Shown: positions 1 to 12,418 of the stretch, piece after piece
How positions within the stretch are numbered: the first letter of the stretch is position 1
Layout: each line of letters starts with the position of its first letter
Assembly: GCA_965199715.1 (NCBI GenBank)
Contig: OZ241322.1
Location: 1,920,001-1,984,000, forward strand
DNA length: 64,000 nt
Direction: 5' to 3'
From: Vicinamibacteria bacterium
GTDB lineage: Bacteria; Acidobacteriota; Vicinamibacteria; Marinacidobacterales; Marinacidobacteraceae
Position numbers and translations under genes: made by a program
Notes under the pieces: generated by a model
Seen by the model: only the letters and a program-made list of their open reading frames with translations
What the model was told of the DNA's origin: nothing
Database searches by the model: none

Positions 1-2
1 TG

Positions 3-1307
3 GCGCTCCAGTGGCTCAAGCGCGACCTAGTGGACACGGTGTTCATTGTCACGAAGAAATCGTTGGTTGAGAACTGGCGACGAGAAGTGGAGGCTCACTG
101 CGCGATCACACCGCACGTTCTGTCGAGTAACCGTGCGCGGAACAGCAAGGCACTCAACTCCCCAGTTCTTCTGTATATTATGCACTACGAGACTGTCGCG
201 TCGAACAAAGGGACTTTGGGACTGTTCTTGCGGACGTGTCGAGTTGGATGCATTCTCGATGAAAGTCAGAAAATCAAGAACCCACAGACAGCGCTATCGC
301 GAACCTTCCACGACATAGCGAGCGGGTTTGAACGTCGGGTCATCATGACGGGTACACCGGCCGCAAATCGTCCGTACGACATCTGGTCACAAATTCGTTT
401 TTTGGACGGCGGACACGCTCTCGGCGAGTCGTTCGACAGTTTTCGTGCGGAGATGGATCTGCCAAATGTTGGCACTAGTGTGGACGAATACGGTCAACGC
501 CTGAGCGCGATCCATCGACGACTAGCGCCATTTGCTGTGCGGGAGACAAAGGAGACGGCGGGCATTAGTTTGCCGGAAAAGACCATTGTCGGCCATCGAG
601 TGGAAATGGAGATGCGACAAGCGGAACGGTATTCCGCGTACCGAGACGAACTTGCGTTGGAGTATTTGAGGGAGGACGGCAATGTCGAGGTGGACGACGC
701 GGAGAACGTCCTCAAGCGGTTGCTGCGGCTGGTCCAATGCGCATCCAATCCGGCGTTGATCGATGAGGAGTATGACAGAGAGCCGGCGAAATTGCCGTTG
801 CTGCGGGACCTGTGCCAGGAGTTGATTCCGGACTCGAAATTGATTATCTGGACAGGATTCGTGGCCAATGTGGAGTGGCTGGCAACGAAACTAGCCAGCT
901 ACTCGCCATTGACTGTTCACGGAGGCCTCACGATGTCGCGACGAAATGACGCGATCTGCGAGTTTGTTGAGTCAAGACACTTGATTTTGATTGCGACGCC
1001 GGGAGCGGCCAAGGAGGGGCTCACTCTGACGGCGGCGAATCATGCGATTTTCTTTGATCGCAGTTTTAGTTTGGACGACTACCTTCAAGCACAGGATCGC
1101 ATTCACCGGATTTCTCAGACGCGAGAGACATTTGTGCACAACCTGATAGCGCAGAACACGATTGACGAATGGATCGATTCACTGCTCTCGGCGAAGTACC
1201 GTGCGGCGCAGATGGCGCAAGGTGACATCAGTGCGACACGGTTTCGCAACTCGTTCCAGTCGGATGTGGGCGAGATGCTTCGGGCGGTTCTCCGCTCCGG
1301 GCGGTAA
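3..1307 (+). CDS. SNF2/SWI2-family helicase (5'-truncated by window edge)
   Basis: Frame open from nt 3 (ALQWLKRDLVDTVFIV...). SF2/SNF2 motifs: II DESQKIKN, III MTGTP, V AKEGLTL, VI QAQDRIHRISQ. Walker A lies upstream of the window. Confidence 0.93.
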   Translation, partial: ALQWLKRDLVDTVFIVTKKSLVENWRREVEAHCAITPHVLSSNRARNSKALNSPVLLYIMHYETVASNKGTLGLFLRTCRVGCILDESQKIKNPQTALSRTFHDIASGFERRVIMTGTPAANRPYDIWSQIRFLDGGHALGESFDSFRAEMDLPNVGTSVDEYGQRLSAIHRRLAPFAVRETKETAGISLPEKTIVGHRVEMEMRQAERYSAYRDELALEYLREDGNVEVDDAENVLKRLLRLVQCASNPALIDEEYDREPAKLPLLRDLCQELIPDSKLIIWTGFVANVEWLATKLASYSPLTVHGGLTMSRRNDAICEFVESRHLILIATPGAAKEGLTLTAANHAIFFDRSFSLDDYLQAQDRIHRISQTRETFVHNLIAQNTIDEWIDSLLSAKYRAAQMAQGDISATRFRNSFQSDVGEMLRAVLRSGR

Positions 1308-1426
1308 TTGCGGGCGTTGCCCGGGGCGGGTTCGGACCACGCAGCTGGGTATCCGCCGCGGCGCGATATTGCGTTACGGGCGTAGGGGGCGGGGTGGTGG
1401 AGCGCATTGGGGGGTGCGGGGTCTGG

Positions 1427-1870
1427 ATGCTGGAGTCGCCCGATCGACTGCTGGATCAGTTTCTGGCGCAGCGGGGCTTCGCTGTGGCGTTCCACGAAGG
1501 GGACGCTGGTCAAGGCCTCGAAGGAGGCGGTCGCTTACCGGATCCTCGGGCCGGGATGGATGTCTGCCTGTATCGCGAGGAGGAGCGGGCGGCGGGGAAC
1601 CTTCGAAACGGGCGCAACCGGAAGCCGGCCTTACCGACGACGGGGAGATGGACCAAGGGGGTCCGCGGGGCCGCATGGGTGGACTCGGGTCGAGCCTCGT
1701 AGAGAAGCGCCTCCGGCGGCTGCTGGGGTTCGACGTGGAGACGCTCTCGAGGTCTCGCCGAACTTGTCTTGACGGTGACCGACGAGGCGCGATAGCAGCG
1801 GTCGCACGCGCTGGAGGCGACGTACGCGTTGATGTTCTTCGACGCGCTGCGGGTGAAGGTGCAGGATAAG
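1427..1870 (+). pseudogene. Degenerate IS256-family transposase fragment
   Basis: IS256-like peptides spread over several frames: DRLLDQFL, EEERAAGNLRNGRNRK, LTDDGEMD, LVEKRLRRLLGFD, LEATYALMFFDALRVKVQD. Multiple frameshifts, stops and an internal deletion. Confidence 0.75.
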
Positions 1871-1916
1871 TGTCTGTGCGGCCCAACCCCATCACGGCCG
1901 TCCAATGCGCTCCCAG

Positions 1917-2560
1917 TGGAGTTGCCCCGGTTTCGTGGACGGCTGACCTCTAGCGAGGAGGGCGTCCACGATGATGACCAAGAAGAAGCGGAAGCGTCCG
2001 CAGCGGTGCGCTTCGGAACGCGGCTGGTTGAGCTGGCGCGCTCGGGCCGGAGTCCGGAGGACCCGGCGCGGGAGCTCGAGCCTACCGCCGCGATGATCCG
2101 GACCTGGCGGCGGGCCGCGGACTTGGCCGAGGAAGCGGACGCCGACGGCTGGAGTCGGCCGGAGCGCGAGGAGATGCGCCGGCCGCGTCAGGAGAACTTC
2201 CGCCTCAAGCGCGAGCGGGAGATCCCGGGAAAGGCGGCGGCCTGGTTCGCCCGGGAGACCATCTCCGAGGGTGGAGGCTCATGAAGGCGCGCCGGGCCGA
2301 GTGTCCGATCGCCATGACGGCCCGCGTCCTGAAGGTCTCGAGGAGCAGGCGCTACGCGCGGCTGGGGCGCGAGCCGTCCTCTCGCGAGGGCGGACACGGC
2401 GCTGATGGAGGCGATCCGGGCGATCCACGAGGAGAGCCGGGAGGCGTACGGCGCGCCGCGGGCTCGGGCGGAGCCTCGCTCGCGGGAAGAGCGGGCGAGC
2501 CGGAAGCGGATCGCGCGGTTGATGCGGAGGCTGGGCGTTCAGGGAGCGTCGCGGCGGCTC
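1917..2560 (+). mobile_element. Truncated IS3-family element (orfA plus 5' part of orfB)
   Basis: IS3-like left end TGGAGTTGCCCCGGTTTCGTGGAC at ~1917. orfA-like LVELARSGRS..ARELE..ENFRLKREREI.KAAAWFARE. orfB-like MARVLKVSRS.Y and IRAIHEESREAYGAPR...RKRIARLMR. No integrase core or right end. Confidence 0.82.
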
Positions 2561-2679
2561 GGGGAATCGCCTACTGATTTCTTGGTACAGTGCGCTCGAA
2601 TTCCGCCATGGGACCCAAAACGGGCCCCCGATCAGGTCGTTACGGAGAGAGCGAAGAAAGTGAACGGACAGACCGCCCA

Positions 2680-3702
2680 ATGAGTTCGCATGGCCCCACA
2701 ATCACTTTACTGGGAACGACCATCGAAGGAACGGAGGAGAGCCTCCCCATAGAAGATCTCCGCTTCTTCCCAGAGAACCCGCGTGTACTGGCTGCCGTGC
2801 GAGAAATTACGGGTTTCGAGGAGCTGACGTTAGAGGAAAAACAGGAGCAAATCTACAAGCGCCTGCTGAAGGAACCCAGTGTCAAGAATCTCAAGCCCGA
2901 AATCGAGCGTGATGGCGGGCTCCAAGTGCCGATCATCGTTCGCGTAGAGACCAACCAGGTAATCGAGGGAAACTCGCGCCTTGCGGTGTACCGCGCGCTG
3001 GCCGAAGACAATAGAAGCGACGAGCGATGGACACACATACGGTGCCACGTCTTCTCCGGGCTTACGGACGAACAACAAACACGGATTTTGAGTGCAACCC
3101 ATTTACAGGGCATCACCGAATGGCCGCCGTATGCGAAAGCACTCTTCTGCTTCACAGCCGTGGAAGAGCGTCAGGTACCGATCGAAGCGTTCTCCAGCCT
3201 CACTGGAATGGGGAAGGCCGAGATACAGAAGCAGGTCAAAATAGTCAAGATGATGCAAGAAAACGCCGACAACAACTACGCGAATTTCAGCTACTACGAC
3301 GTGTTGGTGCGTTCTCGCAAACTCGCTCCTGCGATCCAAGACAACGAGACGCTTCGCAAGAAACTTCTCAGCGATATCAAGACGAGTGCCTTTACAGCAC
3401 GAGCAATGCGCGATCAGCTTCCAACTATCATGGATAAGCCGCGCGTATTTCGAAAATATATGCAGGGCGGAGTGACACTGGAGGAGGCCTACGATCGTTC
3501 GAAAATTAGCGGAGCTGAGCAGCTTCTGAAGCGGGTCCTCACGCGGTTGAAGGAAATCGAGGCGCCGGACATTACGAGTTTGGAAGCAACGCGCGCGCGA
3601 GCTCTTCAAATGCACGCCCGAAAGATCGAGAGAGAGATTCGACGCGTCTTGAGTGGCGTCGAACGGCACTTGAAGTCCGACGGAGAAAAAGGGATTCCAT
3701 GA
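2680..3702 (+). CDS. ParB/Srx-like N-terminal domain protein
   Basis: LRFFPENPR, IERDGGLQVPIIV and VIEGNSRLA match the ParB-N fold motifs. ATG at 2680 chosen over TTG/GTG-type start at 2590. Stop overlaps the next ATG. Confidence 0.82.
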   Translation: MSSHGPTITLLGTTIEGTEESLPIEDLRFFPENPRVLAAVREITGFEELTLEEKQEQIYKRLLKEPSVKNLKPEIERDGGLQVPIIVRVETNQVIEGNSRLAVYRALAEDNRSDERWTHIRCHVFSGLTDEQQTRILSATHLQGITEWPPYAKALFCFTAVEERQVPIEAFSSLTGMGKAEIQKQVKIVKMMQENADNNYANFSYYDVLVRSRKLAPAIQDNETLRKKLLSDIKTSAFTARAMRDQLPTIMDKPRVFRKYMQGGVTLEEAYDRSKISGAEQLLKRVLTRLKEIEAPDITSLEATRARALQMHARKIEREIRRVLSGVERHLKSDGEKGIP

Positions 3703-5324
3703 CCGCGTTCGGATCCGGGAAACGCATCCTTCTGGTGGAGCCGGGATACCGAAACAAGTATCCCCCGCTAGGCCTCATGAAGCTGGCGGCGTACCACGGG
3801 CCGGAGGGCCGGAGAGATATGGTTCGCTTCGTGAAGGGTGAAGACCCCGAGGTTCTTGAGCACGCTTGGGATCGAGTCTACGTGACCACGCTGTTCAGCT
3901 TTGAGTGGAAGCGGACTGCGGAGGCCATCGATTTCGCAGTGCGGGCCGCACACGGACAGGCCGAGCGGGTCTTCGTGGGGGGTATCGCCGCCACATTGAT
4001 GTTCGAGGATTTTGTGCGGGAACCGCGGTGGGCGGGAGTTCGCTTCATCACCGGACTCTTGGATCAGGCGCCCGCTCAGTCGCTCCAACTCTCGACCGCA
4101 GACGGTGACTTCGGCGCGGATGACATGGATGGATTGCCGATTGAGGAACGGGTGCCCGACTACACGATCCTCGATCACGTGCGCTATGGGTATCCGGTTC
4201 ACGATGCGTACTTCGGGTACGCCTCACGCGGATGTGTGAGGAAATGCGCCTTCTGCGGCGTCCCCAAATTGGAGGGTGGACAGCGGGAAATGCCACCGCT
4301 TACGGGGATGGTGCGCGACGTGTACGATCGATTTGGGCCCAAGAAGGATCTCATTCTTATGGACAACAACGTTGCGGCAAGCACGCGGTATCGGGAAGTT
4401 ATTGCAGAGATCCGTGACGTGGGTTTCCATCGGGGTGCACGGTTGGAGCGGGGAGGGAACAAGCCGATTAAGCGCCGCGTGGACTTCAATCAAGGTGTGG
4501 ACGCACGTATTCTTGTGAAGTCGCCGATGTACCTTGAGGAAATGGCCACGATATGTATTGATCCACTGCGGATTGCGTTTGATCACGTCGGGATGCGCCG
4601 AGTCTACGAGCGTGCGGTTCGCATGGCGGCGGAAAATGGCCTCACGTCATTGTCCAACTACCTGCTCTACAACTTCAAGGACTCACCGCGGGATCTCTAT
4701 CGACGCATGAAGATCAACATCGCTCTGAATGAGGAGCTCGGAGTACGGATTTGGTCGTTTCCGATGAGATACCTGCCTGTGACCATGAAGGACCGCTCCC
4801 ACGTCGGCGAACGATGGAACCGTTACTTCCTGCGGTCATTTCAGCTCATGCTGCAGGCGACGCATGGAGTTGTGTCGGGGAATGGGGAGTTCTTTCATCG
4901 GGCGTTCGGAGACGGGGAGGAGCAATTCGAGGAGCTGCTAGCGCTTCCCCACGCCTTCATTTTCGCGCGGAGCTTTTACGATCAAGGGGCGGGACGCGGC
5001 GTTTTCGACGACTACCTGGCGCTTCGGCGGCGAGCGTCGGCGAGTCAGCGTGCCGATCTTGTCGCTGTGCTCAGCGAGGTGTTGAATCTCCGCCCACGGC
5101 GGGACGCATTTCGGCGTCTGTTGGCGGATCGGTCCGTGGACCGTCTTACGCGCGAGCTGGCGCGCTTTCACGCCATCGACACGCGAGCGCCCAAGGTTAC
5201 CGAAGTGTCGCGCTTGGTTTCGGAGGTCGCGCCGGAGGAGGTACGAATCGAGGACGCGGGCTTGTATGATCCAATCGGCGGTCAGCCGGAGTCCGTAGAG
5301 ACACCGCTGCGCGCGAGCGGATGA
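3699..5324 (+). CDS. Radical SAM protein with N-terminal cobalamin-binding-like domain
   Basis: CxxxCxxC (CVRKCAFC, nt 4233-4256) after YASRG. N-terminal ILLVEPGY..KYPPLGLMKLAAY; also MDNN and VDFNQGVDAR. ATGA overlaps on both sides. Confidence 0.9.
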   Translation: MTAFGSGKRILLVEPGYRNKYPPLGLMKLAAYHGPEGRRDMVRFVKGEDPEVLEHAWDRVYVTTLFSFEWKRTAEAIDFAVRAAHGQAERVFVGGIAATLMFEDFVREPRWAGVRFITGLLDQAPAQSLQLSTADGDFGADDMDGLPIEERVPDYTILDHVRYGYPVHDAYFGYASRGCVRKCAFCGVPKLEGGQREMPPLTGMVRDVYDRFGPKKDLILMDNNVAASTRYREVIAEIRDVGFHRGARLERGGNKPIKRRVDFNQGVDARILVKSPMYLEEMATICIDPLRIAFDHVGMRRVYERAVRMAAENGLTSLSNYLLYNFKDSPRDLYRRMKINIALNEELGVRIWSFPMRYLPVTMKDRSHVGERWNRYFLRSFQLMLQATHGVVSGNGEFFHRAFGDGEEQFEELLALPHAFIFARSFYDQGAGRGVFDDYLALRRRASASQRADLVAVLSEVLNLRPRRDAFRRLLADRSVDRLTRELARFHAIDTRAPKVTEVSRLVSEVAPEEVRIEDAGLYDPIGGQPESVETPLRASG

Positions 5325-6832
5325 GACGGGAACGCCCGGCGCTCGTCGGGGGCGATATCCTGCGGCTGGTCACATCGGGGATTTATGACGACCCCTTGAT
5401 GTTGTATCGGGAATACCTCCAGAACGCGGCGGATTCGGTGGAGATTGAGGCTGGTGGGAAGGGAGCGGCGCACGTCGTTCTCGATCGACTTGCCGGACGA
5501 GTAACCGTACGTGACGATGGTGCCGGGTTGTCGCCGGCCGAGGCGGTCAACCGGCTGACGGATGTGGGGAACAGCCCGAAGGTTCCTGGGCGTCATCGCG
5601 GGTTGCGCGGAGTTGGGCGTCTGTGTGCGCTCGCGTTCGCGGAGAGCGTGCACTTCACAACGCGCGCCAGTGGGAGGGAACCGGTGACGCGCGTCTCTTG
5701 GAGCGGGCGCGCTTTCCGCGAAGGAGCCGGGGTCGACATGGACGCGAGGGAGGCGATTGAGTCCTGTACTGAAGTCCAGACGCTCTTGGGAGGGGACTGG
5801 CCCGAACGGTTCTTTGAGGTGAGAGTGGAACGCGTGACGCGGATGGCGGCCGGACTGGTGCTCAACGAAGATGCAGTCCGACGGTACATTGGCGAGGTGT
5901 GCCCCGTTCCCTTGGATTCATCTTTTCCATTTGCCACTGAGGTGAACGCGTTCCTCAGTCAACACATCAACTACTTCGGGCTTGACGTGCGGCTCAATGA
6001 ACGGGAGAGGCCGATCAAGCGACCATACGGGAAGGGTGTGAGAGTGACGGACGAGCTATTGGTTCCGTTCGAGCGACTTGAGACTCGTCTGATTCCGCGA
6101 ATCGATTCGGACCGGCCGGCGGCCGTCGTGTGGCTTGCGCACACGCCGTATATGGGCTCGATCTCGAAGCGACTGGCGATTCGGGGCCTTCGTGCACGAG
6201 TCGGGAACGTGCAAGTGGGTGGGGATCACGTGTTCGAGAAATTGTTTCATGAGTCTCGTTTCAATGGGTGGTGCGTAGGGGAGGTCCATATTGCGGATAG
6301 TCGGATCGCCCCCAACGGGAGACGCGACTACTTCGAGGTGAACCCGCATCTGCGGAATCTCGAGAACCATCTTGGGACGGTCGCGCGGGAGATTGGCGGG
6401 AGGTGTCGGCGGGCCTCGTCGCAACGCAACAGAATTCGTAACGTTCGGACGGTCATCGGTCAGGTCAAGCGAGCTCGGGAGTTGGCGATATCGGGGTACC
6501 TGTGTAGGGAGGACGCAGCGCGGCTGTTGCAGCGCCAGCGGGCGCGGATGGAGGAGATCAGGAAACACGTGCGGCTGCTTCCGGCCGCCCTGGGCGTGGA
6601 GGGGGGCGAAATGGAGTCTCTTGAGAGCGAGTTGGAGGAGGTCGACTTGGAAGCGCTCGGGCGCCGCGCCAACGACAGACTGACTGACTTGCCGCCTACG
6701 TCGGCACGCGCCCTGCGGTCGGCCTTTGGGGCGCTCGCTGCGACCATGTCGGTCGACGCAGTCTTCGAAGTCATTGCGCTCGTCGAAGGCCGGCTGTCTC
6801 GTGAGCGGGCTTTTCGGGCGAGCCGAGCGTGA
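5321..6832 (+). CDS. GHKL (HSP90/MORC/MutL-like, HATPase_c) ATPase
   Basis: N-box REYLQNAADS, G1 DDGAGL, G2 GLRGVG. S5-like second domain (GEVHI...PNGRRDYFE) and a helical C-terminus. Confidence 0.9.
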   Translation: MRRERPALVGGDILRLVTSGIYDDPLMLYREYLQNAADSVEIEAGGKGAAHVVLDRLAGRVTVRDDGAGLSPAEAVNRLTDVGNSPKVPGRHRGLRGVGRLCALAFAESVHFTTRASGREPVTRVSWSGRAFREGAGVDMDAREAIESCTEVQTLLGGDWPERFFEVRVERVTRMAAGLVLNEDAVRRYIGEVCPVPLDSSFPFATEVNAFLSQHINYFGLDVRLNERERPIKRPYGKGVRVTDELLVPFERLETRLIPRIDSDRPAAVVWLAHTPYMGSISKRLAIRGLRARVGNVQVGGDHVFEKLFHESRFNGWCVGEVHIADSRIAPNGRRDYFEVNPHLRNLENHLGTVAREIGGRCRRASSQRNRIRNVRTVIGQVKRARELAISGYLCREDAARLLQRQRARMEEIRKHVRLLPAALGVEGGEMESLESELEEVDLEALGRRANDRLTDLPPTSARALRSAFGALAATMSVDAVFEVIALVEGRLSRERAFRASRA

Positions 6833-7227: not shown

Positions 7228-7700
7228 ATGCTGCGTGAAGTGCAACTTGAGAATTTCAAGTGCTTCGAGCACTTGAAGCTCGACTGCGCGCCGCTGAGCC
7301 TCCTCTGCGGACTGAATGGCACGGGAAAGAGCAGCTTGATTCAGGCGCTGCTCGTGCTGAGACAGTCGTTCGCGAGCCGCGCCCTCGAAGACGGGCGCCC
7401 TTCGCTTCGCGGGGAGCTCGCCGGTCTCGGTGATGCCTCGGATGTTCTCTTTCAGCATGCGAAGATGCCAGAAGCGGCCTTCTCTCTTGGTGCTGGGTCC
7501 GAGCGCGAGGCCTGGAGCAAGCGGTTCCGACTCTCGAGCATCGGTCGGTTCGCGGCCGTCCGCGCGGACGAGGAAGTCCCGCACGCCTAGCGAGACGCAA
7601 CCCCGTTCGGCGGGCGCATGCTGCACGTGGGGGCGGAACGGGCGGGGCCCCGCAAGGCCTTTCCTCTCGCCGAAAAGGAGGCCCAGCCGGAGCACTTCGG
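7228..7700 (+). pseudogene. Truncated AAA/ABC-type ATPase (DUF3696-associated type)
   Basis: LENFKCF start and Walker A GLNGTGKSSLIQALL. In-frame TAG at 7588, after which homology resumes (LHVGAERAGPRKAFPL) and then stops abruptly at ~7700. No Walker B. Confidence 0.75.
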
Positions 7701-7713
7701 CCACAATGCCCCC

Positions 7714-8757
7714 GTGATCGCCCTCCTCGCGCAGGCGGCGCTGCTCGTCGCCCTTGAGGCGGTCGTGCTCGACGGGGGCGAGCCGGTTCGGGGACTCGAC
7801 GCGGAGGATTTCGAGGTCGTCGTCGCAGGCCGCGCCCATCCGGTCGCCGACGCCCGGAAGATGGAAGCCGGAGACGCGCCCCGTCGGTTCGTCTTCGTCA
7901 CGAATCGGCGCGGCGCCCGCGGGAGCGATCTCCAGCGAGCGCGGAACGGCTTGGAACGCTTCCTCCGGGAGCGGTTCGCCGAGGGAGACCGCGCGCTTCT
8001 CGTCGATTTCGCCGAGGTTCCACGGATCTCCCGGGGTTGGCGGAATCGGGCCGAGGCGCTCGCGGACGTCCAGTCGGCGGTGGCGGCCGGATTCCGGAGC
8101 CCGAGCGGAGCCGCCGCCGACGCGGCGGACGCCGCGCACATGCTGTTCGCGCTCGCGGAGCGGCTCGCCGGGGAGCCGGGCTCCAAGACCGTCGTCCTGA
8201 TGTCGGGGAGCCTCGCCGCCTTCGCCGGTGAGGCCGGGGGCGCCCTGGGCCAGAACCGCGTTCCGTTCGATCCGCCGAACTGGCTTCCGCGGCTGCCGAA
8301 GGACCGCAATGGAAACCGCGACGCGCCGGGCGCGCTCGCCCTCGCGTTCCGCGCCGCCGGAGCCACGCTCCACGCGATCCACCTTGAGGGCGCACGCCGC
8401 CACGACGGCGGCGTCCTCGTCTCGAGCCGCGCCGAGTCGGGCCCGATCTCGACGACCACGGGGGCGAACGGCGAGACAACGAGCGCCCAGCGCGTCTGGA
8501 ACTCCTCCGCGTCGCCCTCGGGCCGGACCCGCGACGCCTTCGCGCGCCCGACCGACGACTTCCTCTCTTCGCTCGCCTCCGACACGGGCGGCTCCTACGT
8601 TGCGCGCGCCGCCGACTTCGCCCGCGCGCTCGAGCGGATCGAGGCCCGAAGCCGGGTCTGGTATGGACTGGCCTTCGAGTCGCCGGGCGGCGCCTACGAA
8701 GTTCGCGTCCGCGGGAGGCCCGAACTCACGGTTGCCGCGCGCCTCGTCCCCGAGTGA
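7714..8757 (+). CDS. Acidobacterial VWA-related domain protein (paralogue 1)
   Basis: GTG start with CACAAT 6 nt upstream. Signal-like N-terminus; PVRGLDAEDFEV, GSKTVVLMSG, LSSLASDTGG, Y.L.F and VRVR motifs. Confidence 0.75.
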   Translation: MIALLAQAALLVALEAVVLDGGEPVRGLDAEDFEVVVAGRAHPVADARKMEAGDAPRRFVFVTNRRGARGSDLQRARNGLERFLRERFAEGDRALLVDFAEVPRISRGWRNRAEALADVQSAVAAGFRSPSGAAADAADAAHMLFALAERLAGEPGSKTVVLMSGSLAAFAGEAGGALGQNRVPFDPPNWLPRLPKDRNGNRDAPGALALAFRAAGATLHAIHLEGARRHDGGVLVSSRAESGPISTTTGANGETTSAQRVWNSSASPSGRTRDAFARPTDDFLSSLASDTGGSYVARAADFARALERIEARSRVWYGLAFESPGGAYEVRVRGRPELTVAARLVPE

Positions 8758-9491: not shown

Positions 9492-10487
9492 ATGACGTCG
9501 CTCGTGACCTTCCCTCTCGTCCTGCTCGCGGCGCTCGCGCAGGCGCCCGTGACGGTCGAAGCGCTCGTCGTGGACCGTCGGGGCGAGGCCGTCACCGGTC
9601 TCTCCGCCGCCGACTTCGAGGCGGAACTCCCCATCCTCGAGGCGAAGGCGGCGGGCGACGGCCCCCGGCGCCTCGTCCTCGTCTTCAACCGGCGCGGCGC
9701 TGTGGCGGGCCGGCTGAATCGGGCGAAGCGCGGCGTGGAGGCGTTCCTTCGGAGGCGCCTGCGGGAGGAAGACGAAGTCCTCTTCGCCGACCTCGGCGAG
9801 ACGTTGCGGATCGGGCGGGGCTTCGCTTCGGGGCGCGCCGCGGCGCTCGCGGGCCTCGGGACCATCCCCGCGATGGGATATCCGAGCCCCTCCGGCGCGC
9901 GGGGCGACGCGGCCGCCGCCCGGTCGCTCCTGGATCTCGTCGCCGAGCGGCTCGCTGGCGAGCGCGGCCGCAAGATCGTCGTTCTCTACTCTGGCAGCCT
10001 CAGCAGCTTCTCGGACGTCGGCGAGGACGTGCAGGGCGCCCGCAGCGAACCCGCCTACGCCGCGCTGGTGGAGGGATTCCTCGCGGCGCGGGCGCAAGTC
10101 CACGTGGCCCACCTCGCCGGAGTCATGGAGTTCGAGGACCGCATCCTGACCGCCGGCCGGGGCGAGCTCATCGTGAACTCCGAAGCCGGCGGCCGCGTGC
10201 TGGGCAGCATCTTCTCCTCGTCCACGAAGGACCAGCGGCGGATGGACTCCACGCCCCGCAGCGGCGACGACGTCCTGTCCAGCCTCGCCGCCGACACCGG
10301 TGGCCTGTATCTTGCTCGGACGACGGATTTCGGGAGCGCGCTCGACCGCGCGCTCGCCCATGACCGGAGTCGATACGTGCTGACGCTGCCCCGCATGGAA
10401 GAATCCGGGAAGATGGGGATTCGCGTTCCGGCCTGCGACGAATGCCGGGTGTTGCTCGCGCGCGTCGCGCGGGAGGACGAACAGTGA
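9492..10487 (+). CDS. Acidobacterial VWA-related domain protein (paralogue 2)
   Basis: Signal peptide; VVDRRGEAVTGLSAADFE, GRKIVVLYSG, LSSLAADTGG, YVL. True start may be GTG 9504. Confidence 0.8.
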   Translation: MTSLVTFPLVLLAALAQAPVTVEALVVDRRGEAVTGLSAADFEAELPILEAKAAGDGPRRLVLVFNRRGAVAGRLNRAKRGVEAFLRRRLREEDEVLFADLGETLRIGRGFASGRAAALAGLGTIPAMGYPSPSGARGDAAAARSLLDLVAERLAGERGRKIVVLYSGSLSSFSDVGEDVQGARSEPAYAALVEGFLAARAQVHVAHLAGVMEFEDRILTAGRGELIVNSEAGGRVLGSIFSSSTKDQRRMDSTPRSGDDVLSSLAADTGGLYLARTTDFGSALDRALAHDRSRYVLTLPRMEESGKMGIRVPACDECRVLLARVAREDEQ

Positions 10488-12418
10488 CCGGCAAGACCCT
10501 GACGCGCCTGATCCTGGCGCTGGCCGTGGCGGTTCCCGCCGCCGGCTCCGCCCAGACCTTCCGCTTCCGCGCCGAGGCGACGCGGGTGATCGTGGACGTC
10601 CTCGTTCTGGACGACGACGGGAGGCCGGTGCCCGGCCTCATGGCCGAAGACTTCGAGCTGGTCGAGGACGGCGAGCCGCAGCGGGTCGCCTCGATCGACG
10701 TCGTGGACTGGGAGCGCTACGACCTCGAGCGCTCCGATCCCGAAGCGGCGGAGGCCGTTCCCGGCGCGGCGCCGGCGCCCGAGGCCCGGGACGCGCAGGT
10801 CAACGCCTCGCCGCGGCGCTTCGTCATCGTGTTCAACCGCCGCCGCGCCGACCCGGTGAACCTGCGGCGGGCGAAGCGGGGCATCGAGGAGTTCGTGGTC
10901 CAGAACATGGTGGACGGCGACGAGACCATGCTCATCGAGTTCGCGAACCAGGTGCGCGTCCTCCAGGAGTTCTGGCCGGGCAAGGGGCAGACGCTCGCCA
11001 ACGTGCGGCGCATCGTGCCGGGCACTTACGAGAGCCCAGTGGGGCCGGAGATGGACGCCCGCGAATCCTTCCGCATGCTGCATGCGCTCGCCGGGGCGCT
11101 CGAGTCGATCGAGGGACGCAAGATCGTCGTCCTCTTCTCGATCGACCTCCAGACCTTCGCCGACCCGAGGCAGGTCGTCGGCGAGATCGCCGGGACCGAG
11201 GTGGACGAGTTCCCCGGCCGGCGCGCCTTCGACGAGACCGAGACCCTCCACCACGCGATCCGCCAGCTCAACCACGCGAACGCCACGCTCTACGCGGTGG
11301 ATCTCGAGGGGGTCTATGGAAGCGAGAACGACATCCTCGTCGCCTCGCGGAACTCGTTCGACATCTTCGGCAACGAGCTCGGAGTCGAGGGCAGCGACCA
11401 TCCGCTGGCTCGCATGGACGTCGCCGCCAACGTGCCCTCCGAGGGCGGAACCGCGTCGCTCGCGGTCGCGACCGGCGGCACCTGGTTCCCGAACCAGACG
11501 AACTTCGCGGTGGCCCTGAACCGCATCGGGATCCAGAACCAGCTCTACTACCTGCTCTCGTTCTCGCCCCGCAACAGCGAGCTGGACGGCTCGTACCGCA
11601 ACATCGAAGTGCGGGTCCGGGACCGTCCCGACCTGCGGGTGATCGCCCGCCCGGGATATTTCGCGCGCGAGCGCGAGGGGCCGGCGACCGAGATGGTGAC
11701 CGTCGCCCGGGGGAGCTACGGCTACGCCCTCCCGGAGAACCTGCACACCTACTCGTACCTGCTCGAGCCGCGCCCCGACGGAGCCTTCGGCGTGATCTCC
11801 GCCGCGCTCCCGGATTCGATGCTGGACGAGCCCGCCGACCTGCGGCTGCGCGTCTCGAACGCCGCCGGCGACGTCCTCGCCGAGGCGGCCGACCGGGTGG
11901 ACCGCGAGCGCTTCTTCGTGAGCGCGCCGGCGGACCTGCCCGCGGGCGAGCTGCTCCTCGAGCTCGTGCTGGAACGGGACGGGCGCGTCCTCCAGACGGC
12001 CGACTCGGATCTTCGGATCCCCGCCGACTTCGGCGCCGACTTCTCGCTTTCCAGCGTGTTCCCGTTCGTGGCCGAAGCCCACCAGGCGGAGGCCGTCGGA
12101 CCGCCGGTGCGGCCGGTGGCGACCTTCGCGGGGGCCGAGGACGCGCGGGTGGCGTTTTTCGTGTTTCCCGGCCGGGAGAACCCGGCCGCCGGGGTCCGGG
12201 TCGCCTACGAGATCCGCAACGCCGCCGGCGAGATCTCGGTCGAGGGCGAGCGTCCGGGGGTCTTCGACATCGATCCGTCGCGGCCGGGAGGCACGCCGAT
12301 CATGCTGGCGCTGCAGACCGGTTCGCTCCGCGCCGGGCTCTATACCGCGGTCGTCCGGGTCGAGGACCGGCGCGGGGACCGCAGCGCGGTGGGCGAGCTG
12401 GACTTCCTGATCCGCTGA
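10484..12418 (+). CDS. Acidobacterial VWA-related domain protein with C-terminal Ig-like domains (paralogue 3)
   Basis: GTG overlaps the previous stop and has a GGAGG RBS. Signal peptide then QTFRFRAEATRVIVDVLVLDDDGRPVPGL..EDF, GRKIVVLFS, LAVATGG, YYLLSFSP..DGSYRNIEVRV...ARPGYFA. Confidence 0.88.
   Translation: MTGKTLTRLILALAVAVPAAGSAQTFRFRAEATRVIVDVLVLDDDGRPVPGLMAEDFELVEDGEPQRVASIDVVDWERYDLERSDPEAAEAVPGAAPAPEARDAQVNASPRRFVIVFNRRRADPVNLRRAKRGIEEFVVQNMVDGDETMLIEFANQVRVLQEFWPGKGQTLANVRRIVPGTYESPVGPEMDARESFRMLHALAGALESIEGRKIVVLFSIDLQTFADPRQVVGEIAGTEVDEFPGRRAFDETETLHHAIRQLNHANATLYAVDLEGVYGSENDILVASRNSFDIFGNELGVEGSDHPLARMDVAANVPSEGGTASLAVATGGTWFPNQTNFAVALNRIGIQNQLYYLLSFSPRNSELDGSYRNIEVRVRDRPDLRVIARPGYFAREREGPATEMVTVARGSYGYALPENLHTYSYLLEPRPDGAFGVISAALPDSMLDEPADLRLRVSNAAGDVLAEAADRVDRERFFVSAPADLPAGELLLELVLERDGRVLQTADSDLRIPADFGADFSLSSVFPFVAEAHQAEAVGPPVRPVATFAGAEDARVAFFVFPGRENPAAGVRVAYEIRNAAGEISVEGERPGVFDIDPSRPGGTPIMLALQTGSLRAGLYTAVVRVEDRRGDRSAVGELDFLIR

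Follow-up and report, generated by a model that had tools for sequence, protein, structure and literature searches.

A six-gene cassette around a radical-SAM enzyme and a GHKL ATPase in a Vicinamibacteria genome, and its possible role as a restriction-modification-like system

A stretch of 64,000 nucleotides from the genome of Vicinamibacteria bacterium (assembly GCA_965199715.1, contig OZ241322.1; G000:C1:1920001-1984000), which we call the window, carries at its 5' edge the downstream two-thirds of a cassette of six genes, and the complete cassette extends over about G000:C1:1918395-1926832. The genes are arranged in the order of ParB1 (a ParB-like protein), a putative mini PD-(D/E)xK nuclease, an SNF2 helicase, ParB2 (a second ParB-like protein), a radical S-adenosylmethionine (radical-SAM) enzyme and a GHKL ATPase, with relics of insertion sequences (IS) lying between the SNF2 and ParB2 genes. 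The co-occurrence counts in two directions, given below, tell us that the radical-SAM and GHKL genes are the constant core and that the nuclease modules are swappable. We consider it plausible, if still tentative, that the cassette is a two-module restriction-modification-like system consisting of a modification core and a restriction arm.

The first-pass annotation of this DNA described four intact, co-oriented genes. The four open reading frames (ORFs), 3..1307 (open at its 5' end), 2590..3702, 3699..5324 and 5321..6832, are indeed all on the plus strand and uninterrupted, and the last three are coupled by the ATGA overlaps that it pointed out ('ccATGAcc' at 3699-3702 and 'ggATGAga' at 5321-5324). 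They are also richer in A/T, at 50-65% GC versus 71.5% for the genome (2.66 Mb in 2 contigs) and 70-75% for both flanks. The unit is, however, not one of four genes but one of six here and of up to nine elsewhere. The upstream flank (L001 = G000:C1:1908001-1928000; a window position is the L001 position minus 12000) holds two further cassette genes on the plus strand, as the annotation had thought possible. They are ParB1 (344 aa, L001 10395-11429) and a gene for a 149-aa protein (L001 11416-11865), which overlaps the stop of ParB1. The low-GC stretch begins about 1.8 kb upstream of the window, and all six reading frames are whole in the source genome.

The recurrence of these genes was surveyed in both directions. 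In the forward survey, contigs of one genome per species were searched with the radical-SAM protein, and the best 80 of 134 relatives were compared with the six proteins of the window cassette by tblastn. A GHKL gene adjoined the radical-SAM gene in 76/80 loci. ParB1, SNF2 and ParB2 were each present in 45/80 and the small nuclease in 34/80; SNF2, ParB2, radical-SAM and GHKL genes came together in 42/80, all six genes in 32/80, and the exact order of the window with nothing else of the query set in 26/80. According to the record titles, the hosts belong to Acidobacteriota, Alpha- and Gammaproteobacteria, Binatia, Gemmatimonadota, Nitrospira, Verrucomicrobiota and others, with many sponge-associated metagenome-assembled genomes (MAGs) among them. 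In the reverse survey, metagenome contigs were searched with the ParB1 profile and the best 80 of 527 relatives were taken. ParB1, SNF2 and ParB2 were found together in 48/80 of these loci, and 41 of the 48 also had the radical-SAM gene. The other seven each have less than 3.5 kb of flank on at least one side; where both flanks reach 3.5 kb or more, the radical-SAM gene was present in 20/20 loci. The co-occurrence of the genes, on which the first-pass annotation had made its proposal depend, holds in both directions and across many phyla.

The identity to the window proteins varies from gene to gene, being 53-73% for the radical-SAM enzyme, 38-70% for SNF2, 33-60% for GHKL, 28-56% for ParB2 and 22-47% for the nuclease. 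This uneven conservation fits a fixed chemistry combined with fast-evolving recognition or effector parts.

These surveys also bear on whether the cassette is one system at all. Two independent systems may have come to lie side by side as in defence islands, namely an AbiR-like set of ParB, nuclease and SNF2 genes and a separate radical-SAM/GHKL pair. The relative orientation of the halves is variable (in the reverse survey, the radical-SAM gene is downstream and co-oriented in 27 loci, upstream and divergent in 10 and downstream and convergent in 4), the pair occurs without the other module in 35/80 loci of the forward survey, and the IS relics separate the halves in the window, all of which would be expected of such neighbours. 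On the other hand, the radical-SAM gene was never missing from the adequately flanked loci sampled by ParB1, and about 45 nt lie between the halves in most homologous loci. Moreover, ParB2 overlaps the radical-SAM gene by ATGA and is a paralogue of ParB1, tying the halves together. We therefore regard two unrelated neighbours as improbable.

The core is found with several other partners. A PIN_8 protein (4.7e-21) and a second GHKL protein (21-31% identical) accompany it in 21 loci, a 615-aa protein with no Pfam match and a second GHKL protein in 5 loci, and a HerA/DUF87-type ATPase beside a second GHKL gene in one further locus. In seven loci, the ParB/SNF2 module and the PIN/GHKL module occur together. 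Ten loci of the forward survey, several of them short contigs, have no accessory modules, and a DndB-like gene stands beside the core in the four of them that were examined. The position directly 5' of the radical-SAM gene is taken by a ParB-superfamily gene, which is ParB2 in the subtype of the window and a DndB/DGQHR-like gene in many other loci. Pfam DndB was detected in two of the larger proteins encoded there (3.3e-12 and 2.3e-12), with weaker, sub-threshold scores in the rest, and RefSeq labels the gene in relatives as 'DGQHR domain-containing protein'. In the reverse survey, a DndB-like gene was present in 24/41 of the loci bearing the radical-SAM gene. Two of the DndB-like proteins are large: the stop-to-stop frame is 822 aa in L052, where it lies directly upstream of the radical-SAM gene, and 785 aa in L075, where it lies near that gene.

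Wherever the flanks were long enough to tell, the arm came with the core, and the core often occurred without the arm, as a protective mark predicts. By analogy, this asymmetry is the pattern of Dnd-type modification cores, which have exchangeable restriction modules and a ParB-superfamily protein with the DGQHR motif, DndB, beside the modifier (PMC10853773). The first-pass annotation placed the radical-SAM enzyme in the slot of the modifier. The placement agrees with the numbers (core without arm in 35/80, arm with radical-SAM gene in 20/20), and in that slot the enzyme would modify DNA.

The protein encoded by 3699..5324 (plus strand, 541 aa) is a member of the radical-SAM superfamily as judged from its CxxxCxxC motif and its predicted fold. 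Its Pfam radical-SAM score was under the cut-off (0.0092; 16.6 vs 29.5 bits). C179, C183 and C186 of the motif are the only invariant cysteines in 39/39 aligned homologues. The AlphaFold2 (AF2) model (predicted local distance difference test score, pLDDT, 85.8; predicted template-modelling score, pTM, 0.83) consists of an N-terminal Rossmann domain of the B12-binding-like kind, a core with CxxxCxxC and a disordered tail; the disordered part is the last 40 residues, with a near-invariant EDAGL motif (518-522) of which E518 and D519 are invariant. Foldseek matched the model to MgmA (5.7e-11) and then more weakly to OxsB, MiaB, TsrM, AprD4, TokK and CysS, with TM-scores of about 0.41-0.49. A word-indexed search found at least 7995 homologous proteins at E 0.001, the best of them 69-74% identical and almost all of 540-556 aa, and an exhaustive search of 50%-identity representatives found 268 at E <= 1e-30, 786 at <= 1e-10 and 1568 at <= 1e-3.

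The enzyme had been annotated as cobalamin-type. This stands insofar as the fold of its N-terminal domain is like that of MgmA, OxsB, TsrM and TokK, but the likeness goes no further than the fold. Pfam B12-binding was absent from the window protein and sub-threshold in three relatives (7.3e-3, 2.2e-4 and 9.5e-4), and AprD4 and MiaB, which are also among the fold matches, are not known to use B12. The modelled Rossmann domain allows the use of cobalamin and does not show it. All of the Rossmann-plus-radical-SAM enzymes (MgmA, TsrM, TokK and CysS; OxsB; AprD4; MiaB/RimO) share the two-domain fold and CxxxCxxC with the window protein, whereas the identity to it is 10-15%. A methylthiotransferase of the MiaB/RimO kind was considered and rejected: there is no invariant cysteine besides those of CxxxCxxC, the near-invariant C286 lies in the core domain, and because a second cysteine triad is missing the protein is not a methylthiotransferase. 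The sequence similarity to RimO is confined to the surroundings of the cluster motif (E about 7e-4).

The nature of this enzyme leaves room for defence without self-marking, which we find unlikely. In that case, the radical-SAM enzyme would be the effector itself or the maker of an antiviral small molecule (such as a modified nucleotide of the viperin kind or a damaged pool of nucleotides), the ParB-like NTP-binders and the GHKL protein would serve as sensors or switches, and the nuclease modules as back-up effectors. To our knowledge, the radical-SAM enzymes in immunity have so far been nucleotide modifiers, namely viperins, which agrees with such a role. So do the presence of AprD4, a diol dehydratase, among the fold matches and the titles of matched PDB entries, according to which ParB-fold proteins bind CTP or other NTPs. 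Moreover, a neighbourhood of HSP90, radical-SAM and nucleotide-cyclase genes is read as toxin-antitoxin-like in a preprint (10.64898/2026.10.19.760177). On the other hand, the ParB/SNF2 module depends on the radical-SAM/GHKL pair and not the reverse, which is predicted by a mark and not required by an effector. In addition, the DndB-like gene is directly 5' of the radical-SAM gene in many loci, and DndB and DpdB act in DNA modification (PMC10853773; PMC10164549; PMC12839542).

The gene following the radical-SAM gene (5321..6832, plus strand) encodes a 503-aa GHKL ATPase of the Hsp90/HtpG-like type, with intact Bergerat motifs and with an activity that is predicted from them. Pfam HATPase_c_3 was barely above its cut-off (1.5e-5; 25.5 vs 25 bits), and the NCBIfam HSP90 family matched at 1.2e-8, below the cut-off of that model. 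When a profile of 45 sequences was compared with PDB sequences, the N-domains of HtpG (best E 2.4e-14), TRAP1, Grp94 and Hsp90 were found. In the 45 sequences, E31, N35, D38, D65 (DxGxG), G94, G97 and G99 are invariant, and the middle domain is conserved. The first-pass annotation had assigned this ATPase to the restriction or sensing arm. It belongs instead to the core module with the radical-SAM enzyme, because the two are paired in 76/80 loci and one fusion protein joins both. The fusion (P0126, 1359 aa, from one metagenome contig) consists of DndB-like, radical-SAM (37% identity) and GHKL (31% identity) parts in the order of the operon. It was the single fusion in a search for longer homologues, in which scarcity is weak evidence. 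Prediction of a complex between the full-length radical-SAM protein and residues 1-400 of the GHKL protein gave a score of 0.01, which counts neither for nor against binding.

ParB2 (340 aa, plus strand) most likely starts at ATG 2680, giving 2680..3702, rather than at GTG 2590, because its homologues align from that methionine. It had no match in Pfam, PADLOC or NCBIfam. Even so, the naming of this protein as ParB-like was borne out by its AF2 model (pLDDT 92.5), for which all the Foldseek matches in PDB at E <= 0.001 were to ParB/Noc/KorB/Spo0J or to pNOB8-type ParB, with a best E of 1.6e-5 and with the N-domain of pNOB8-type ParB (5k5d) at 1.3e-4. One ParB2 homologue is annotated in RefSeq as 'ParB N-terminal domain-containing protein'. 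ParB1 is a full-length paralogue of ParB2 (hhalign of the families: probability 99.9, E 4e-36). NPR (33-35 in ParB2) and G-N-x-R (G97-N98-x-R100 in ParB2) are invariant in both paralogue families; these we take to be the nucleotide-site boxes of ParB, so that an NTP site is predicted in both proteins. Compared with PDB sequences, the ParB1 profile gave weak matches to ParB, Noc and SbnI (E 0.026-0.9), and the profiles of ParB2 and of the nuclease gave no significant match. In the locus of a Chromatiales MAG (L051 5886-8738, minus strand), three ParB1-like genes stand in tandem beside SNF2 and upstream of the radical-SAM/GHKL pair.

The 149-aa protein between ParB1 and SNF2 is a candidate PD-(D/E)xK nuclease by its motif only. 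D30, P45-D46 and E62-x-K64 are invariant in 33 sequences, as in the PD-(D/E)xK signature, and the protein had no Pfam family and no match among PDB sequences.

The SNF2-family helicase (about 485 aa; window 1..1307, plus strand) was identified by Pfam SNF2-rel_dom (1.2e-22) and Helicase_C (7.1e-14), and the GxGKT and DESQ motifs are present. Its start is probably the TTG at L001 11850 (G000:C1:1919850), 151 nt 5' of the window, because homologues align from exactly that residue; this start overlaps the 3' end of the small nuclease gene. A longer upstream ORF was rejected as an Arg-rich out-of-frame read. Likewise, a frameshifted fusion with the upstream sequence was rejected on the grounds that homologues share the start residue and that the upstream frame is the conserved small nuclease. 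Orthologues in the 45/80 loci fetched with the radical-SAM protein are 38-70% identical.

The SNF2 and ParB2 genes are 1.37 kb apart here, versus about 45 nt in homologous loci (for example, L002 8918 to 8966). The insert (1308..2679), which is not a part of the system, is GC-rich (64-75%) and matches two IS types, and therefore represents relics of two elements that landed inside the cassette. The IS relics noted in the first-pass annotation are thus two elements located between SNF2 and ParB2. Window positions 1441-1866 match one other site of the genome, C1:2217465-2217968, which is a Mutator/IS256-type element, and positions 1912-2557 match four other places of the genome, the element being of the IS3 type. 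The full-length copies encode Transposase_mut (2.3e-100) and a pair of rve and HTH_Tnp_1, respectively. The family of the Mutator/IS256-type element is apparently active or abundant in the lineage. A scan for consensus promoters found nothing useful in the locus. RNA contigs from two libraries of one study matched pieces of every cassette gene at >=99% identity, thinly on SNF2, and spanned the ParB2/radical-SAM and radical-SAM/GHKL junctions. They are a weak hint of expression, as DNA can occur in such libraries. A lack of cover by these contigs over the gap with the IS relics and over the left junction was not used as evidence. Apart from this, a 72-nt piece of the Mutator/IS256-type relic (L001 13809-13881, window 1809-1881) has at least 8 matches of 81-82% identity in a genome of the same genus (G003).

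The gene set could not be matched to a named system by the first-pass annotation, and we came to the same result. PADLOC v2.0.0 (2023) has no models for the radical-SAM, ParB2, nuclease and GHKL proteins, and Pfam and NCBIfam give the cassette proteins generic names only. The names given in RefSeq are 'radical SAM protein', 'ATP-binding protein', 'DEAD/DEAH box helicase' and 'hypothetical protein'. Full-text literature searches on defence sets of radical-SAM with ParB, SNF2 or GHKL proteins gave no description of this gene set. The HSP90/radical-SAM/cyclase neighbourhood of the preprint (10.64898/2026.10.19.760177), which may or may not belong to the same family, may bear on the claim of novelty.

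With regard to the restriction arm, the closest likeness is to AbiR (AbiRi/ii/iii) of the lactococcal plasmid pKR223, a likeness in described composition. In the available part of the source (PMC13064643), AbiR has three components, one sigma70-like, one ParB-like and one a restriction endonuclease (REase)/SNF2 protein, and no GHKL protein is mentioned. AbiR is reported there to block phage DNA replication and to depend on the methylase encoded next to it, the lack of which makes it toxic. The first-pass annotation had described AbiR as a GHKL/SNF2 system dependent on a methylase; according to this text, the methylase dependence and the SNF2 part were right and the GHKL part was not. AbiR and the cassette share a ParB-like protein and SNF2, and the candidate small nuclease may correspond to the REase-like domain of AbiR. 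The ParB-like component is matched here, in that 5K5D, which the same text aligns to AbiRii, is also a fold match of ParB2, and the need of AbiR for an adjacent DNA modifier parallels the presence of the radical-SAM core in all adequately flanked loci with the ParB/SNF2 module. However, AbiR has the nuclease and SNF2 in one protein, whereas the cassette has a separate 149-aa gene, identified by motif, and SNF2. Moreover, AbiR has no second ParB and uses the methyltransferase of a type II restriction-modification system, whereas the neighbour in the cassette is the radical-SAM/GHKL pair. As for the sigma70-like component, no sigma-factor family was found by Pfam in the six cassette proteins.

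The SNF2 protein also matched PADLOC models of other systems, ZorD at 8.7e-39, DpdE at 6.5e-31 and DrmD at 1.4e-14, in the helicase core only. The NCBIfam scores were far under the equivalog cut-offs (62 vs 1500 bits for ZorD). In Zorya (ZorD) and DISARM (DrmD), the shared part is the SNF2 helicase core, and the match is restricted to the C-terminal helicase portion of models that are about 750-1200 positions long; partners of the ZorABC and DrmABC kinds were not detected among the cassette proteins. Dpd (DpdA-K, 7-deazaguanine) is similar to the cassette as a multigene restriction-modification-like system with a ParB-like ATPase and with SNF2-type DpdE in its restriction arm, and DNA modification in Dpd needs its ParB-like ATPase, DpdB (PMC10164549; PMC12839542). 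On the other hand, the DpdE match is limited to the helicase core, in models about 850-1300 positions long, the candidate modifier of the cassette is the radical-SAM enzyme, and neither DpdA (a TGT-like transglycosylase) nor DpdC was found among the six proteins by Pfam, PADLOC or NCBIfam. Dnd/Ssp phosphorothioation has in common with the relatives of the cassette the DndB-like gene beside the modifier and the swappable restriction partners. However, the modifier-adjacent slot holds a DGQHR gene in Dnd and ParB2 in the window copy, and DndC is a PP-loop enzyme outside the radical-SAM superfamily (PMC10853773). The same three databases gave no homologues of DndA, DndC, DndD or DndE among the cassette proteins. 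Membership in Zorya, DISARM, Dpd or Dnd was rejected, as the partner genes were not detected.

These comparisons lead to a possible mechanism. ParB-fold clamps and GHKL dimers (ParB, Noc, MutL and MORC) are nucleotide-driven machines that embrace DNA. The core module would comprise a ParB-family protein, the radical-SAM enzyme and the GHKL ATPase, the first and the last of which (the ATPase as an ATP-driven dimer) would be loaded on DNA and recruit the radical-SAM enzyme to it. The enzyme would then write, via a 5'-deoxyadenosyl radical, a covalent mark on the DNA of the cell itself. ParB1, the small nuclease and SNF2 would form an AbiR-like arm, which would translocate on unmarked DNA and then cut it. 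We infer that DNA would be the substrate, that the mark would be self-protecting, that the arm would be restricting and that the defence would be directed against phages or plasmids. In a more specific form of this reading, a ParB-type clamp and an Hsp90-type ATPase would load the radical-SAM enzyme, and a new covalent DNA mark made by radical chemistry, such as C-H methylation or a different C-C or C-X bond on base, sugar or backbone, would be the self-label of a widespread family of restriction-like systems with exchangeable nuclease arms. This form is possible, and we hold it with more doubt than the two-module system in general.

Several points weigh against this interpretation. The fold relatives of the radical-SAM enzyme act on protein, tRNA and small molecules, and the TM-scores are about 0.41-0.49, so that the fold is silent on the substrate. 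The search for domains in the radical-SAM protein revealed none that binds nucleic acids, and Pfam found no informative extra domain in ten longer relatives of it. The lack of defence-model matches to the core is equally expected of a non-defence function, and the evidence from fusion is one sequence from one contig. Both surveys retained the best-scoring 80 loci and therefore lean to close relatives, and kin are not independent. Finally, the IS relics may separate the last three genes of the window copy from their promoter, and this copy may be silent or decaying.

The foreign nature of the region, which the first-pass annotation had suggested, is supported by its low GC, its sporadic presence among relatives and a break of synteny, and the cassette is, on these features of the sequence, horizontally acquired. 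The radical-SAM gene was not found in 3/3 genomes of the same genus, and in 40 relatives there was a single true orthologue, in G006 (66% identity), with three other matches being weak (E 2e-8 to 1e-3). Synteny with the same genus breaks off exactly at L001 10189 and is regained near window position 10542. In one DNA run (X3), a left-flank contig of depth 164 ends at L001 10189 and an island contig of depth about 68 starts at 10160 (G000:C1:1918160-1918189), which hints that the island is absent from some cells, or at strain heterogeneity; contig depths are not copy numbers. Two loci are examples of decay of the system: the radical-SAM orthologues in L086 (G006:C1:1912504-1914072, TAG) and in L030 (10001-11599) have one internal stop each, and L030 is also without a detectable GHKL neighbour.

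Mobility of the cassette raises the question of whether it serves a mobile element rather than the host. The core might hypermodify the DNA of an element against host restriction, or the genes might work in plasmid conflict, partition or DNA repair; this we think rather unlikely, less probable even than defence without self-marking. Versions of the cassette are indeed carried by conjugative plasmids, one of nine genes by pR132505 (R. leguminosarum WSM1325) and one with PIN, two GHKL and two DGQHR genes by pNL1 (N. aromaticivorans). ParB/Srx proteins mediate plasmid conflict, and a set of GHKL, SNF2 and nuclease could also serve repair. Phage records contain radical-SAM homologues as well, one of them beside HerA/exonuclease-annotated genes. 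However, these homologues are only distant ones (<=34% identity) and come without the cassette, and most of the 80 genome loci lie on chromosomal contigs, which range from hundreds of kb to Mb in size. Exchangeable modules of the PIN, HerA and REase kinds and a fast-evolving small nuclease are, moreover, typical of immunity. On pNL1, a 769-aa 'DGQHR domain-containing protein' is encoded directly downstream of the radical-SAM/GHKL pair (L082 12180-14489, minus strand). In temperate Marinitoga camini virus 1 (KP836355.1; L084 6998-10824), a 29%-identical radical-SAM homologue adjoins genes annotated as HerA helicase and Rad50/Mre11-associated exonuclease.

Downstream of the cassette and outside it, window positions 7228..7590 (plus strand) encode a decayed neighbour of 120 aa. 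This is an N-terminal stub of an AAA_15/OLD-type ATPase (Pfam AAA_15, 7.8e-11, profile positions 1-48 of 374), which bears out the mention of defence-type pseudogenes in the first-pass annotation. The ORFs at 7618-8757, 9492-10487 and 10442-12418 (plus strand) look alike by eye, with shared 'FNRRGA...' and '...TGG.Y.AR' stretches, and the first two of them lie in a stretch that has no counterpart in the same-genus genomes. The ORFs flanking the island had no Pfam family at E <= 0.001, and at <= 0.1 just a sub-threshold SoPB_HTH on 7618-8757.

Finally, the radical-SAM family spans soil, marine and symbiotic bacteria as well as rhizobial and sphingomonad plasmids. Its carriers include culturable, non-pathogenic strains (Rhizobium leguminosarum WSM1325, Novosphingobium aromaticivorans DSM 12444 and Sinorhizobium kostiense DSM 13372), and the question is therefore directly testable. 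If the two-module reading is true, a family of thousands (at least 7995 matches, with 268 representatives at E <= 1e-30) would write a new DNA mark; in the more specific form given above, this would be the first radical-SAM-written DNA mark for discrimination of self from non-self. The two-module reading, if true, would also provide a mechanistic partner for the long-unexplained ParB/SNF2 defence of the AbiR type and a first function for the prokaryotic Hsp90-like ATPases beside radical-SAM genes. Such a mark would also mean new chemistry for bacterial epigenetics and a new enzyme class for DNA labelling.

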